Source of the DNA: Nanobdellota archaeon
GTDB taxonomy: Archaea > Nanobdellota > Nanobdellia > Woesearchaeales > GW2011-AR9
DNA length: 58,865 bases
Assembly (NCBI GenBank): GCA_038046465.1
Contig: JBBSWB010000041.1
Coordinates: forward strand, 1 to 58,865
Direction: 5' to 3'
Under the pieces are notes generated by a model that worked only from the letters and a program-made list of their open reading frames with translations, had not been told where the DNA came from and did not search any database. The position numbers and the translations under genes are program-made. Positions within the stretch are counted from its first letter, which is position 1. Each line of letters begins with the position of its first letter. Of this stretch, positions 1 to 48,789 are shown one piece after another.

Positions 1-98
1 GATTTCTGTACTCGAGAATATAGATTAAATCACTTCAGAATACTGAAGTATTACTTAAATGCAAAAACTTTATAAAGACTTAATTGACAAAAGCAAGA

Positions 99-9941: not shown

Positions 9942-10082
9942 TGGACTTGGCGGGACTTTCGTGCAGCAAAATCTTTTTTGCTTGGTGGGCTTCAGCCCGC
10001 CGTACTTGCCTAGATTGCTGGCATTCGAACCCGCAGCCTTTCACATGCGAAGCGAACGCGATAGCCGTTTCGCCACAAGCCC
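9942..10082 (-). tRNA. tRNA-Ala (anticodon CGC) with a 68-nt intron in the T-loop (intron 9956..10023, position 59/60)
   Basis: Manual fold of the minus strand: GGGCTTG TG GCGA AACGGCTA TCGC G TTCGC TTCGCAT GTGAA AGGCT GCGGG TTCGAA [68 nt] T CCCGC CAAGTCC A. G3:U70 is present, and a helix-bulge-helix-bulge-helix motif sits at the junction. Confidence 0.85.
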
Positions 10083-11968: not shown

Positions 11969-14164
11969 CTAAGCACCTAATTCTCCAGACGACAATCCTT
12001 TCCTTTGGACAATCTGAGTTCGCACTCTTTCTTGTAATTCCGCCGGCAGTTTCTCAAACATCTGGTCGACCAGAGTGGAATTACCTCGTCCTTCAGTCGC
12101 TGAACGCAAGTCGCTGCTCCATCCAATCAATTCGGCAACGGGAAGTTTGGCTTTGACAATTACCTGATCTTCTTCCTGATTCATGTCTAGTAATTGACCT
12201 CGCTTAGAAGAAACAATTTTAGAAATTTCTCCAGTGTATTCAGTAGGCGCTTCTATTCGCATGATCTGCAAGGGCTCAAACATTACTGGTCCAGCCTGCA
12301 TCATTGCTCCTCGAATACCTTCACGAACTGCTGGATACATTTGTGCCGGTCCTCGGTGAATAGCATCTTCGTGTAAGTTACAGTCCATTAAGCTAACTTT
12401 TACACCCATACAAGGTTCTTTAGCTAATGGTCCTGCTTTCATTACATCTTCAAACATGTCTAACACTAGCTCGATGATTTCATTAATGTAAACTATACCT
12501 CGAGTTTGGTCCATAAACATATTGCCGTTGCAAGTAGCTTTAACCATCCCAGCAGTTTTAGTATCCCAGCCGCATTCTTCCCGAAGGAAAGTGATGGTCT
12601 GTTCGTCTCTTTTCCGTAATCTTCCATTGGTAACTTTTCCTTCTTTAATTCCTTGGGCAATTACTGGATCTAAAGGCTCGACGACAAAGTAAAGTTTGTT
12701 GTGCTTGTTAGGAGATTTACCTTCTACTTCTGGGCTTTTCTTAGTAACCGTTTCACGGTATACTACAATTGGCGGAGAAGTTTTAACTTCTACATTTTTT
12801 TCAGTAGTGATCCTGTTTTCAATAATCTCTAAATGCAATTCTCCCATTCCGCTGATTAAGTTTTGTCCGGTTTCTTCATTGATTTCAATTTTGATGGAAG
12901 GATCTTCCCGACCAACTTTTCGCAGAACTTCAATTAACTTAGGCAAATCGGCAGATTTCTTAGCTTCGATAGCTTTAGTAATTACTGGTTCAAAGATATG
13001 TTTTATCTCTTCAAAGGGATGCTCGGGTACAACCGTTACGGTTTCTCCTGCAAATCCCAATACGCCAGAGATAGCTAAAACGTTTCCTGCCGGCAAAGAT
13101 TCGATGATTTCCGGTTTAACTCCGTTATAAATGTAAACGTTTTGAATCCGCTGCTTTTGCTTAGCGTTATTAAGATAGACTTCCATTCCGCTTTTAATTG
13201 TTCCACTAAACAACCGTCCGGCAGAAATGTCTTTTCCTGACCGAGGATCAACTACAATCCTAGTAATAATAAAAGCGATTTGCCCATCAGGGTTACAATT
13301 AACTAAATCTTTTCCCATCTCTGATTCTGGATCGCCACGCCAAATCTTAGGAATTCGATATTTTTGTGCGCTAATCGGATCAGGATGGTGTTTAATAACC
13401 ATGTCTAAGATAACTTCGTGTAAAGGTGCATTATCCCAAACCCAGTTTTTTCGTTCTTCTCCTTCCAGTTCATAAATTTTTAAGATATCAGAGAATTTAA
13501 CATTTTTTTTCTGCATGTACGGAAAGGACAAGGCCCAGTTTTCTCGTGCACTACCAAAAGCAACGCTTCCTTCCTGAACTTTAACTTTCCATAAGTCTTT
13601 ATATTCAGGTTCAGCAATACGTTCAATTAAATTATTAAATTGGCTAACTAAAGTCATAACTCGTTCTGCAATTTTATCCGGAGAAAGTTTTAATTCTTTT
13701 ACCAATCGGTCTACTTTATTAATAAACAGCACCGGTTTAACTCTTTCTCTAAGAGCCTGTCTAACTACAGTTTCCGTCTGCGGCATGATTCCTTCAACTG
13801 CACAGATTAAAACTACTGTACCATCAACTGCTCGCATAGCCCGAGTTACGTTTCCGCCAAAGTCAACGTGACCAGGAGTATCAATAAGATTAATTAAAAA
13901 TTCTTTTTCATCATAATTGTGAACCATGGAAACATTTGCTGCATCAACGGTCATTAAACGTTCCTGCTCGTCTTTGTGCAGCCAAGTAGCCATACCTCCT
14001 TCTAACTGCCCGGCAAATTTTTCTGCCATCATTCCTGCTGCAGCCAGTAAGTTATCAGTAAACGCGGTTTTACCGTGGTGAATGTGTGCACTGGTACAAA
14101 TATTTCTGATTTGCCTAGGGTTCTGCGTAATCCGCATAACCTTATCGACCATTTTTTCTGCCAT
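11969..14164 (-). CDS. fusA: Translation elongation factor 2
   Basis: AHIHHGKT, DTPGHVDF and NKVD motifs; 731 aa. The diphthamide-region sequence HEDAIHRG is present. Confidence 0.98.
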   Translation of the reverse strand: MAEKMVDKVMRITQNPRQIRNICTSAHIHHGKTAFTDNLLAAAGMMAEKFAGQLEGGMATWLHKDEQERLMTVDAANVSMVHNYDEKEFLINLIDTPGHVDFGGNVTRAMRAVDGTVVLICAVEGIMPQTETVVRQALRERVKPVLFINKVDRLVKELKLSPDKIAERVMTLVSQFNNLIERIAEPEYKDLWKVKVQEGSVAFGSARENWALSFPYMQKKNVKFSDILKIYELEGEERKNWVWDNAPLHEVILDMVIKHHPDPISAQKYRIPKIWRGDPESEMGKDLVNCNPDGQIAFIITRIVVDPRSGKDISAGRLFSGTIKSGMEVYLNNAKQKQRIQNVYIYNGVKPEIIESLPAGNVLAISGVLGFAGETVTVVPEHPFEEIKHIFEPVITKAIEAKKSADLPKLIEVLRKVGREDPSIKIEINEETGQNLISGMGELHLEIIENRITTEKNVEVKTSPPIVVYRETVTKKSPEVEGKSPNKHNKLYFVVEPLDPVIAQGIKEGKVTNGRLRKRDEQTITFLREECGWDTKTAGMVKATCNGNMFMDQTRGIVYINEIIELVLDMFEDVMKAGPLAKEPCMGVKVSLMDCNLHEDAIHRGPAQMYPAVREGIRGAMMQAGPVMFEPLQIMRIEAPTEYTGEISKIVSSKRGQLLDMNQEEDQVIVKAKLPVAELIGWSSDLRSATEGRGNSTLVDQMFEKLPAELQERVRTQIVQRKGLSSGELGA

Positions 14165-25996: not shown

Positions 25997-26118
25997 AAAA
26001 ATCACCTTGGCCGCTCGTTCGGCCTATCCTAGCCAATAACTTTCGAAGGGATAGGACTTAATTTATTACTAAAGTATACATTCCCTCACTCGCCTCTTGG
26101 CCTAGGCGGTGATTTTTT
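25997..26118 (-). repeat. Structured hairpin repeat, copy A (family A/B/C; strand given relative to copy C)
   Basis: The reverse complement aligns along its whole length with 44606..44726. Stems are AAAAAATCACC/GGTGATTTTT, CCTAGGCC/GGCCAAGG and CCTATCC/GGATAGG. Confidence 0.7.
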
Positions 26119-29918: not shown

Positions 29919-32858
<2,940 letters not shown>

Positions 32859-32867
32859 AAAATACTA

Positions 32868-33039
32868 AGAGCCTATCCCGTTAGGGCGTTCAGCAGCATA
32901 AGGTCGAACGTCTTAAATTTACACAGCAAGGGCGTCACGGGGGGTTGTCCCATACGGGGACGCAGCCCTAGCAAATTCACAATGCGATGCGTTCGAATCT
33001 GCTGAACGCCTCTACTTTTTACCTATTGGGATAGGCTCT
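32868..33039 (+). ncRNA. Rod-like GC-rich structured element D (candidate ncRNA, strand uncertain)
   Basis: Nested perfect stems AGAGCCTATCCC/GGGATAGGCTCT (12 bp), GGCGTTCAGCAG/CTGCTGAACGCC (12 bp), TCGAACG/CGTTCGA and GGGCGTC/GACGC. The core is far more GC-rich than the flanks. Confidence 0.4.
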
Positions 33040-33109
33040 AAACAAATAACTACAAATAACTAAAGCGATAAATAATAAAAGCAATAATATTAAAATGATT
33101 TATGTTTAA

Positions 33110-34123
33110 ATGATTTTTTCCAATAATCCTAAAATTCCGAGAAAAAAAATATTTACAGCAACTGCATTACTTATATTTTTATTATTATTGTTACTATCTG
33201 CGTTCTCAGTTATTAGTTTTATTGACTTAGCCGTAAGTTCAACCAGTATTACTTTTAGCAACAACAACCCCATAGAAGGAGAACTGGTAAATATCAGCGC
33301 AATGATTAGCAACCTTGGCAATGAAACTGCAACAAACGCAACCCTTCAATATTTAGATGATAAAAAAGAAATAAGTAATGTTACCATTAATGTACCTAAT
33401 TTCTCTTCAGTTGCTGCCTCCCTGTTTTGGCCCGCAGAAATCGGCCCTAACAATATTAGCATTATAATCGACCCCGATAATAGTATAGCCGAATCTGACG
33501 AAACAAACAACTATGCTTCCAAGAAAATAGCTATAAATGGATATCATACTTATTTTGGAAAAGCTGCAGGTTATCTTGCTTTAGGAATAAACTCAAAATT
33601 TTTGTTTCAGGCAAAACTACCAGCATGTAATATTCTCATGGCAGATACGGACAGCAACGTTGATTTTAGTTCTCTTCAGGCCATAGGAAAGAAAAAAAAT
33701 GCAGGAAACTCCAACAGGGATTTTGAAGAAATAGATACACTATTAGGAATGGCTACTTTTTCTGATTCTGTTACTAATCTTTTTAGCGTGAAGCATGGGG
33801 GAAAAATGGTTCCAAAACAAGTAGAAACATTTACTATTTTTGGCACAACCATTCCTGATGTTCCGGTTATAAACAGTACAAATAGTTCTGCTTTTCTAAC
33901 AGGAATATTGTGGGACATTTCCGATGATACTGTGGGAAAGAACGGAGAGTTTGATATAATTAATCGTGAAGATTTAATCTTTGTTACAAAAATAAACCCT
34001 TCACAACAGGGGCAGTATGGCGTTTATGATTACGAAATTAAAATTCCTGCTCTCTTGCGGGAATATAAGCCCGGCAACCCAACGGTTGATTTTTTTATTG
34101 ATATTGATTCTTGTCTTTCATAA
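33110..34123 (+). CDS. Membrane-anchored surface protein with CARDB-like domain and the shared C-terminal module
   Basis: N-terminal TM helix, then a CARDB-like segment (P.EGE.V.ISA.ISN.GN..A....L..... ..E.DE.NN). The C-terminal YDYEIKIPA......VDFFIDIDSC resembles 28412..29152 and 35007..36599. Confidence 0.65.
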   Translation: MIFSNNPKIPRKKIFTATALLIFLLLLLLSAFSVISFIDLAVSSTSITFSNNNPIEGELVNISAMISNLGNETATNATLQYLDDKKEISNVTINVPNFSSVAASLFWPAEIGPNNISIIIDPDNSIAESDETNNYASKKIAINGYHTYFGKAAGYLALGINSKFLFQAKLPACNILMADTDSNVDFSSLQAIGKKKNAGNSNRDFEEIDTLLGMATFSDSVTNLFSVKHGGKMVPKQVETFTIFGTTIPDVPVINSTNSSAFLTGILWDISDDTVGKNGEFDIINREDLIFVTKINPSQQGQYGVYDYEIKIPALLREYKPGNPTVDFFIDIDSCLS

Positions 34124-38367: not shown

Positions 38368-38486
38368 GCCCCAGTAGCTTAGTGGCTATAGCACCTGACT
38401 TGTAGCCAACTATCTGCTATGTTTCCAACGAAATATAAGCATAGTAAGATATCAGGAGATCGGGAGTTCAACTCTCCCCTGGGGCT
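38368..38486 (+). tRNA. tRNA-Thr (anticodon TGT) with a canonical 46-nt intron at 37/38 (38405..38450)
   Basis: GCCCCAG TA GCTT AGTGGCTA TAGC A CCTGA CTTGTA [46 nt] A TCAGG AGATC GGGAG TTCAACT CTCCC CTGGGGC T. Central BHB helix CTTG/TAAG with 3-nt bulges. Confidence 0.9.
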
Positions 38487-44605: not shown

Positions 44606-44726
44606 AAAAGCCACCCGCCTGGCCAAGATGAGCGCGAGAGAATGTTTATTTTAATCAAAAATTAATTCCTATCCCTTTAAATTTTAATTGCAAGGATAGG
44701 TCGAGCGCTCGGCCAGGGTGGCTTTT
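44606..44726 (+). repeat. Structured hairpin repeat, copy C (family A/B/C)
   Basis: Stems are AAAAGCCACCC/GGGTGGCTTTT, CCTGGCC/GGCCAGG, GAGCGC/GCGCTC and CCTATCC/GGATAGG. Homologous to the reverse complement of 25997..26118. Confidence 0.7.
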
Positions 44727-44819
44727 GCGACCAGCTTAGACAGACTAATTCTACCTAAATATTTATAAAACCGATTAGGATTTTAATGACGTTAGTGCCA
44801 GTTGTTCACTCACGTTCAC

Positions 44820-44964
44820 GCCAGCGTCGCATAATTCGGTACTTTGCATAAGCAAAGGTTTACGCGAAGCGAAAAATTGCGCAGGTCTTGAAAACCTGTT
44901 CCTTCGGGAATTCTCGGTTCAAAGCCAGCAATCTAAATTGCTGATGAAATTCCGAGCGCTGGCG
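44820..44964 (+). tRNA. tRNA-Ser (anticodon TGA) with two introns: about 35 nt in the D-loop (about 44842..44876) and 27 nt in the T-loop at 59/60 (44924..44950)
   Basis: GCCAGCG TC GCA TAATTCGGTA [35] T TGC G CAGGT CTTGAAA ACCTG, long variable arm TTCC-TTCG-GGAA, then CTCGG TTCAAA [27] T CCGAG CGCTGGC G. Perfect hBHBh' at the T-loop junction. Confidence 0.8.
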
Positions 44965-44984
44965 CTTTTTATTTTCTAAAAGAA

Positions 44985-48548: not shown

Positions 48549-48599
48549 CCACAGAGAAATAATTTCCCTGGGCGCGACTCAGCATTCACTCACGTTCAC

Positions 48600-48749
48600 G
48601 CCAGCGTCGCATAATCCGGTATTGCGGCAGTCTCGAACAGATCTTTACAATCGAAAGAAAACTGCTCCCTCTGGGATTCTCGGTTCAAACGAGAAACTGC
48701 GTTTCTTACCCAGAAAAACGCAGTTTTTCTGAATGTCCGAGCGCTGGCG
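48600..48749 (+). tRNA. tRNA-Ser (anticodon CGA) with two introns: 22 nt in the anticodon loop (about 48638..48659) and 46 nt in the T-loop at 59/60 (48690..48735)
   Basis: GCCAGCG TC GCA TAATCCGGTAT TGC G GCAGT CTCGAA [22] A ACTGC, variable arm TCCC-TCT-GGGA, then CTCGG TTCAAA [46] T CCGAG CGCTGGC G. A T-run follows. Confidence 0.8.
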
Positions 48750-48789
48750 CTTTTTATTTTTAAAAAAAAGCTAACCTTTCAAAATAAAG

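Follow-up and report, generated by a model that had tools for sequence, protein, structure and literature searches.

The window analysed here, a stretch of 58,865 nucleotides from a Nanobdellota archaeon, belongs to an assembly of 1.18 Mb in 87 contigs, in which intron-bearing archaeal tRNA genes were present; according to contig names in a public collection, it comes from Hainich groundwater. Element D occupied positions 32868-33039 of this window (172 nt) and was located between two surface-protein genes of the same strand, 10 nt past the stop codon of a 979-aa gene and 70 nt ahead of a 337-aa gene. It folded as a rod with nested helices of 12, 12, 7 and 4 + 3 bp. On the + strand, helix 1 was formed by AGAGCCTATCCC (32868-32879) and GGGATAGGCTCT (33028-33039), and helix 2 by GGCGTTCAGCAG (32885-32896) and CTGCTGAACGCC (32999-33010), each with 12 bp and no mismatch. 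Helix 3 comprised 7 bp between TCGAACG (32904-32910) and CGTTCGA (32990-32996), and helix 4 was composed of GGGC (32930-32933) with GCCC (32965-32968) and of GTC with GAC, with GCA bulged out on the 3' side. The core, GGGCGTCACGGGGGGTTGTCCCATACGGGGACGCAGCCC, covered 32930-32968. The GC content was 69% in the 39-nt stretch 32926-32964, which is offset 4 nt upstream of the core, compared with 36% in the window and 33% in the 500-nt flanks. A previous sequence-only reading of this DNA had described the four nested helices and a core richer in GC than its surroundings, and both were confirmed.

The + strand of element D folded with -76.1 kcal/mol, compared with -47.8 +/- 3.9 kcal/mol for shuffled sequences (z = -7.3; 0 of 200 shuffles equally stable), and the - strand folded with -73.5 kcal/mol (z = -6.1). 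The structure is real and of near-equal quality on either strand. The element, of 170-172 nt, contained no ORF of 60 aa or more and carried a 12-bp outer inverted repeat together with a perfect 12-bp inner one inside arms of 17 nt. The left arm of the outer terminal inverted repeat, GAGCCTATCCC (32869-32879, +), paired perfectly with the right arm, GGGATAGGCTC (33028-33038, +), and the addition of A32868 gave helix 1 of the sequence-only reading. This outer repeat was conserved in copies of G018, G002 and G112. Furthermore, a 203-nt contig of another groundwater sample had a match beginning exactly at 32869. Outside the outer repeat, the trinucleotide TAA was found at 32866-32868 and again at 33039-33041, a putative 3-bp target-site duplication that also appeared as a direct repeat on either side in sister copies. 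The same T(A/T)A flanked both sides, direct and not inverted, in five of the six full-length copies of the element D subtype, which is weak alone (about p = 0.1). A target duplication of 3 bp is a habit of some IS5-type elements.

The inner terminal repeat was of the IS66 type. Its left arm, GTTAGGGCGTTCAGCAG (32880-32896, +), included GGCGTTC-AGCAG and could be aligned to the canonical termini GTATTTGTTTAGCATC and GTATGTGCATAGCATC, and its right arm was CTGCTGAACGCCTCTAC (32999-33015, +), with the reverse complement GTAGAGGCGTTCAGCAG. A conserved asymmetric internal loop, CATAAGG (32897-32903, +), separated the left arm from the 5' strand of helix 3; the family consensus of this loop was YUAAGG opposite AG or AU. 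In the GC-rich core (32930-32968, +), the closing helix GGGC/GCCC plus GTC/GAC enclosed the apex motif GGGGGTTGTCCCATACGGGG, located at 32940-32959. The 3' strand of helix 3, CGTTCGA followed by AT (32990-32998, +), contained the word TTCGAAT that had been taken for a T-loop. Between the inner and outer right arms was the unpaired spacer TTTTTACCTATT (33016-33027, +) with a run of five T, which was not kept in sister copies.

Element D was a member of a dispersed family. A BLAST search against 60 relatives gave matches in 31 genomes, several of them with 6-16 each. For an alignment of 15 copies from seven genomes (A2), the RNAalifold consensus contained 33 pairs, 16 of which showed compensatory double changes. 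In 15 copies from seven genomes, T15, A17 and G19 of the internal loop and T20-C21 of the neighbouring helix were invariant, and G18 was nearly so. Among 114 genomes of the same taxonomic family, 57 gave matches to the covariance model R1, whose E-values are rough and to which alignment A3 was fitted. These genomes represented 32 of 58 genera, and the copy number ranged from 1 to at least 30 per genome. Element D matched R1 at 32885-33012 (+) with 115.1 bits and an E-value of about 1e-23, and the rest of the window gave no match at E <= 1e-5. Among 65 aligned copies, 95.1% of the cells were paired, compared with 77.9% for shuffled and about 44% for slid alignments, and double changes occurred in 22 of 32 pairs. 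It should be considered that the copies were gathered by means of a model of the inner module, so that the apparent conservation is biased. Moreover, alignment columns 1-14 covaried with columns 133-145, corresponding to the inner terminal repeats, and the core closing helix appeared as the covarying variants GGGC/GCCC, GAGC/GCTC, GCGC/GCGC and GCTC/GAGC. Conservation and covariation in related genomes, which the sequence-only reading had proposed as a check, were thus strongly in evidence.

Three copies were found in the own genome, namely element D (C41:32885-33012), C77:2705-2833 and one on C34 near 12,400-12,560. The closest copies, with 77-80% identity over 130-150 nt, occurred in other genera and adjoined unrelated genes; the flanking genes of the window were sought beside them at the DNA and protein level, with no match. 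The orientation relative to the upstream gene was random (17 same, 21 opposite). In other groundwater samples, contigs were 100% identical to 32869-33071 or 32878-33029 and did not contain the remaining window, and a deletion derivative of the element was found in different flanks. In G001, of the same genus, the orthologous locus fell on a contig break. Fragments of the subtype and internal deletion derivatives were dispersed in G018 and G002.

Several copies showed rearranged or additional parts. At L040 (G018:C32:22700-22880), the inner part lay in the opposite orientation to the outer shell and the GC core was deleted, an arrangement that suggests inversion and deletion between inverted repeats. 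Some copies, at L038 (G002:C4), L039 (G002:C33), L040 and L054, had the extra hairpins AGAAGGGATCGTTGTCCCTTCT and CAGACGGGAAAACTATCCCGTCTTG between helix 3 and the right terminal repeat. The rods look modular, because these hairpins recurred in other element types. At L100 (G117:C21:6201-6329), the copy apparently lay within a long open frame resembling a GTP-binding protein, with GAGAAGAA-like repeats at the flanks, and may be an in-gene insertion.

The sequence-only reading had offered, as one of three possibilities, that part of the rod is a tRNA-like acceptor/T-arm minihelix with a role in processing or recognition. RNase P, the CCA-adding enzyme or the splicing endonuclease would be examples of enzymes acting on such an element. 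The local string GGCGTTC-AGCAG...TTCGAAT-CTGCT-GAACGCC-T does look like an acceptor with a T-arm, and the genome has odd tRNA genes with non-canonical introns. The 3' half of the string was indeed located at 32992-33011, but its TTCGA was already consumed by the 7-bp helix 3 of the same reading, and it was paired with TCGAA in the minimum-free-energy fold as well as in the alignment fold. Among 63 distinct copies, one pair of helix 3 (alignment columns 23/129) was G-C in 33 and A-U in 24, resulting in TCAAAAC/GTTTTGA, a form that was present in the own-genome copy on C77 and in many copies of relatives. The 3' strand of helix 3 read GTTTTGAAG in the e2 and G004 copies. Accordingly, in about 40% of the copies the supposed T-loop string became TTTTGAAG, which loses the C56 of a T-loop. 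This covariation between G-C and A-U indicated that the T-loop word is a helix strand and not a conserved loop. In addition, the would-be 53-61 pair varied among G-C, U-A and C-G in different copies. The AGCA taken for the T-stem is the inner part of the IS66-type terminal repeat, since the ends of canonical copies equal those of IS66-type elements in relatives and ISDge4 has a similar terminus; the whole 7 + 5 bp stem is a transposon terminal repeat, beside which target duplications were found in relatives.

The searches for known RNAs were in agreement with this result. ARAGORN detected only a tRNA-Ala at 10011-10081 in the window and none at element D, and Rfam reported only an intron-bearing tRNA at 38368-38486. 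The Rfam scan, which had been suggested for element D, gave no family match there; in a permissive scan of 32700-33200 with Rfam 15 (E <= 10), the best hit had 18.3 bits against a gathering threshold of 51.5 bits (E = 3.8) and was spurious. The tRNA-like minihelix was therefore refuted by the lack of an ARAGORN or Rfam match, by the covarying strand that forms the loop word and by the homology of the 12-mer to the IS66-type terminal repeat, and a tRNA-like function is scarcely credible. Compared with true acceptor/T-arm minihelices, the likeness, a 7 + 5 bp stack beside TTCGAAT, was due to chance and limited to one copy, whereas element D had no local T-stem, and the word was paired elsewhere, was not conserved and matched no tRNA model. 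A split, permuted or multi-intron tRNA was also considered and rejected, as there was no D arm, no anticodon arm and no match to a tRNA model. SRP RNA, a 4.5S-like domain IV, a k-turn, hammerhead and HDV-like ribozymes and an integron attC site were likewise rejected; none fitted on reading the sequence, and Rfam was silent. As a separate observation, an SRP RNA of the canonical archaeal type, including the helix 8 motif CAGGTCAGATCCGGAAGGAAGCAGCC, was found at L108 500-760 (G018:C2) in a relative, where it adjoined a GTAATACTTCA-type MITE.

A stand-alone ncRNA had been proposed as well. This was unsupported, considering the target-site duplications, the copy number of 0 to at least 30 per genome, the random orientation and the unrelated neighbours. 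A cis-acting RNA of the surface-protein cluster, which would terminate or attenuate transcription or stabilise the mRNA between the genes of 979 and 337 aa, would fit the position 10 nt past a stop codon, with the following gene of this strand starting 70 nt further on, the very stable fold and the T5 run after helix 2. However, sister copies adjoined unrelated genes (among them those of a MinD-like ATPase and a proteasome subunit), were randomly oriented and had no T5 run, and any effect would be secondary to insertion. Such a role is thus an improbable reason for the presence of the element.

Canonical copies were about 135 bp long, started with GTAT(T/G)TG..TAGC and finished with its complement. 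Twelve distinct copies had intact GTA...TAC ends; a perfect 8-bp direct repeat flanked eight of them, and one further copy had 7 of 8 matching positions, compared with a score of at least 7/8 in 0.4% of cases when flanks were re-paired as a control. Composite copies of about 300-400 bp contained two convergent rods between GTAATACTTCA...TGAAG ends and were flanked by the 8-bp duplications TGACGAGC, TTTACTTA, GAAAGTGC and TCTCTACG. The possibility that GTAATACTTCA is a CRISPR-like repeat was rejected, because this sequence forms a terminal inverted repeat that is accompanied by 8-bp duplications. The own-genome copies e2 and e3 (C77:2690-2850 and C34 near 12,400-12,560, the latter being L158) had GGCTCTGT-type ends with the ISL3-like start GGCTCT, and their duplications were of 8-9 bp (ACAAAAAC-like and GCTGGAAAA). 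An ISL3 partner for the GGCTCTGT-type ends was also considered and rejected; a single ISL3 transposase was found (G117), and only GGCTCT was shared.

Elements of the IS66 family in ISfinder have GTAA ends and direct repeats of 8-9 bp. In our analysis, the canonical termini GTATGTGCATAGC and GTATTTGTTTAGC equalled the ends of IS66-family elements that carry one transposase of about 445 aa; in one case both kinds of element occurred in a single genome. PF03050 (DDE_Tnp_IS66) was found in open frames of 437-459 aa in G117, G118 and G027, and as partial matches in G119 and G022, so that PF03050 occurred in 5 of 14 MITE-rich genomes compared with 0 of 14 MITE-free genomes. The IS66-type element of G027 had the ends GTATGTGCATAGCT...AGCTATGCACATAC and that of G118 had GTATTTGTTTAGCT...AGCTAAACAAATAC; both were identical over 13-14 nt to MITE termini, including those of MITE copies in G027 itself. 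The word T(C/T)AGCA of the inner repeat was also common to the terminal inverted repeat of ISDge4, GTAACTGCTCAGCA. ISDge4 belongs to the ISBst12 group of the IS66 family and has a 449-aa transposase and an 8-bp direct repeat in addition to this terminus (PMC12898284). The marks of an IS66/ISBst12 derivative (GTA ends, an 8-bp repeat and DDE_Tnp_IS66) were all observed for the family, and for element D there was end similarity alone. No match to PF03050 was found in the own assembled genome, although 20 of its contig ends fell in an unassembled insertion sequence with GTAATACTTCAG ends, and no autonomous element with the exact inner or outer ends of element D was found. Similarly, no transposase was found beside the unpaired GTAATAC ends in G018, G022, G072 and G118, and no transposase partner was found for the outer GAGCCTATCCC repeat. 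TATA boxes upstream of the G004 copies were considered separately and rejected, since the distance pattern was explained by AT-rich target sites and element boundaries.

Element D differed from the canonical copies in several respects. Its inner ends were diverged (GTTAGGGCGTTCAGC... and ...GCTGAACGCCTCTAC, written also GTTAGGGCGTTCAGCA / GTAGAGGCGTTCAGCA), and no 8-bp duplication was present beside them (CCTATCCC versus TTTTTACC). The second inverted repeat, GAGCCTATCCC, surrounded these inner ends, with TAA on both outer sides. Element D is of a diverged subtype and is probably an old, immobile relic, because it had no 8-bp duplication and no IS66 transposase was present in the assembled genome.

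Taken together, element D is very probably a non-autonomous DNA transposon (MITE) of a rod-shaped family that has spread through one family of small-genome groundwater archaea. The observations behind this assignment were family membership, covariation, target-site duplications in relatives, ends in common with transposase-bearing IS and unrelated flanking genes. We infer that element D arrived by transposition, and it may have an effect on the neighbouring genes. In the proposed mechanism, an IS66-family (ISBst12-like) element with the same ends and a transposase of about 445 aa would mobilise the canonical copies in trans, and the insertion of a canonical copy would generate the 8-bp target-site duplication. 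The nested helices would then represent two terminal repeats, the repeats next to these and a palindromic core rich in GC. The apparent acceptor/T-stem would be a diverged IS66-type terminal repeat, and the apparent T-loop would be part of the next helix. If the element is transcribed with its neighbours, the RNA between the genes would contain a hairpin of great stability, which would be a side effect and not the reason for its presence.

The type of pairing was examined in the outer and inner parts of the rod. In the outer helices, 1253 of 1308 cells were Watson-Crick (95.8%), with 10 G.U and 9 A.C. With G.U as frequent as A.C, this looks like the pattern of DNA inverted repeats, which bind one protein or pair as DNA, and not that of wobble-rich RNA. 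In the core, G.U (54) exceeded A.C (32), which leaves room for a strand-specific function of the single strand. Another observation speaking against the MITE reading was that the internal kink and apex were better conserved family-wide than the terminal 7 bp, although the model was built on that internal module. A better-conserved interior is unusual for a MITE constrained by transposase binding only.

The apex motif GGGGG-NNG-YCCC-NTNC-GGGG and the conserved kink were common to MITEs with different ends. The YUAAGG/AG loop, the 3' GCA bulge and the 20-nt apex were conserved while the surrounding stems changed, and in several element types the apex capped helices of unrelated sequence. Among 401 genomes of the order, 119 contained the 20-nt apex pattern GGGGGNNGYCCCNTNCGGGG, with up to 73 per genome and 0 control matches; these 119 represented 91 of 257 genera. 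The apex probably folds as a 4-bp C/G mini-hairpin after the G5 tract, and copies of G018, G002 and G117 had a variant in which C-G was replaced by U-A in the CCCC/GGGG mini-hairpin. Transposase-bearing IS copies had no kink/apex module. A non-palindromic apex motif was retained across MITE types and across the order.

One tentative explanation, to which we attach a limited probability, is that the rod is a functional structured module of RNA or single-stranded DNA, with a protein recognising the kink and the G5/C4/G4 apex; MITEs of several end types would carry it as a cargo that helps them or the host, and element D would be one carrier. This explanation would account for the same interior within at least four end types (GTAT(T/G)TG..TAGC, GTAATACTTCA, GGCTCTGT and GAGCCTATCCC), for the apex in 119 of 401 genomes with 0 control matches atop unrelated helices, and for an asymmetric loop and 3' GCA bulge that are conserved while the stems covary. 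The C-G to U-A variant of the apex, the excess of G.U over A.C in the core and the absence of the module from transposase-bearing IS copies are in agreement with it. However, no RNA sequencing run contained the stretch, the orientation to genes was random, the G and C runs were near-invariant, so that covariation cannot settle the apex fold, and a neutral core could be spread when palindromic MITEs reshuffle their modules or insert into one another. The family was also gathered with a model of the same module, which inflates its apparent conservation. The wider proposal, that the kink and the G5-NNG-YCCC-NUNC-G4 apex constitute a selected hairpin module that is read by a protein, was repeatedly captured by MITEs of at least four end types with different transposases and spread over the whole DPANN order, is rather doubtful. 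If it were true, the rods would be carriers of a functional motif and more than transposon debris.

Other repeats were observed alongside element D. The 8-mer CCTATCCC occurred five times in the window compared with 0.89 expected, and two of these occurrences were in the hairpin elements A and C. The outermost helix had been said to share an 8-mer with the A/C hairpins, and this was correct; the word common to A, C and the outer repeat of element D was CCTATCC/GGATAGG. Remote membership in that hairpin family had been suggested. Element D did belong to a dispersed family with conserved pairing, but this family was not A/C, to which it could not be aligned over the whole element and with which it shared the word CCTATCC/GGATAGG only. 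Further structured intergenic repeats of the window were located at 25997-26117, 44606-44726, 44805-44965 and 48585-48750, comprising hairpins A and C together with two elements of about 160 nt that resemble each other.

In the own genome, 20 contig ends, one of them at window positions 1-53 (- strand), lay within a multi-copy insertion sequence with GTAATACTTCAG ends and an unassembled interior. Its two end types, GTAATACTTCAGTAACCTGAAGCAC... and GTAATACTTCAGTATTCTGAAGTGA..., were found ten times each, so that the number of copies is about ten. In 24 of 114 related genomes, numerous small MITEs were bordered by the same 22-nt end and flanked by 8-bp duplications. The interior of this insertion sequence was absent from the bin; all 11 exact metagenome matches were at most about 60 nt away from a contig end, and a collection of genome contigs gave none. 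A second multi-copy element of the own genome ended in ...TTGACATCCTCCCCAGCCATAAATGGCGGGGATTCCCTACGAGGGAAG with a covarying GC hairpin, and was found on C7 near 7,561 and at seven contig ends (C12, C19, C30, C31, C73, C79 and one more). In G017 (relative locus L143 1487-1975), the TTGACATCCTCCCCAGCCATAAATGGCGGGGATTCCCTACGAGGGAAG end adjoined a 163-aa transposase of the IS200/IS605 type (Y1), and thus the own genome carries an IS200/IS605-family element too.

The present MITE family and its IS66-type partner are undescribed, as no description of the family was found in the literature and none in Rfam, and MITEs as a class are well known. In a MITE census, a Woesearchaea genome was among the most MITE-dense archaeal genomes (PMC11602168). 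Our result removes a false lead, in that a supposed tRNA-like ncRNA is explained as a transposon relic. The family is now defined by a covariance model, about 60 aligned copies, the length of the target duplication and an IS66-type partner in streamlined DPANN genomes. Such elements break assemblies and mimic structured RNAs in scans for GC-rich islands of AT-rich genomes. Repeated mis-calls are prevented once they are recognised, and further hairpin elements of the window may be similar cases.

Compared with known systems, the canonical copies were most directly matched by the IS66 family, ISBst12 group (ISDge4 of Deinococcus geothermalis), and its derived MITEs, being alike in the GTA...(T/C)AGCA ends and the 8-bp target duplication; moreover, the elements of relatives with PF03050 of 437-459 aa had the 13-14 nt ends of the canonical copies. 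Element D was different from this group in having no transposase, diverged ends, an extra outer repeat and no 8-bp duplication, and its interior, with kink and GC apex, was missing from the IS copies seen. The REP/REPIN elements (RAYT, Y1) and the palindromic elements derived from IS200/IS605 are dispersed intergenic hairpins as well, but to our knowledge they have no target duplication and no terminal inverted repeats, whereas the rod family has both 8-bp duplications and terminal repeats. The Y1 transposase element in this lineage also had ends unlike those of the rod family. The Correia elements of Neisseria, the enterobacterial ERIC and the pneumococcal RUP are palindromic bacterial MITEs that form long hairpins when transcribed. 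Like these, the rods were small, non-coding and intergenic, with terminal inverted repeats, a target duplication, near full-length self-complementarity and a variable copy number. Unlike these, the present family is archaeal, unrelated in sequence and associated with an IS66-type partner, and it has a non-palindromic apex across MITE types.
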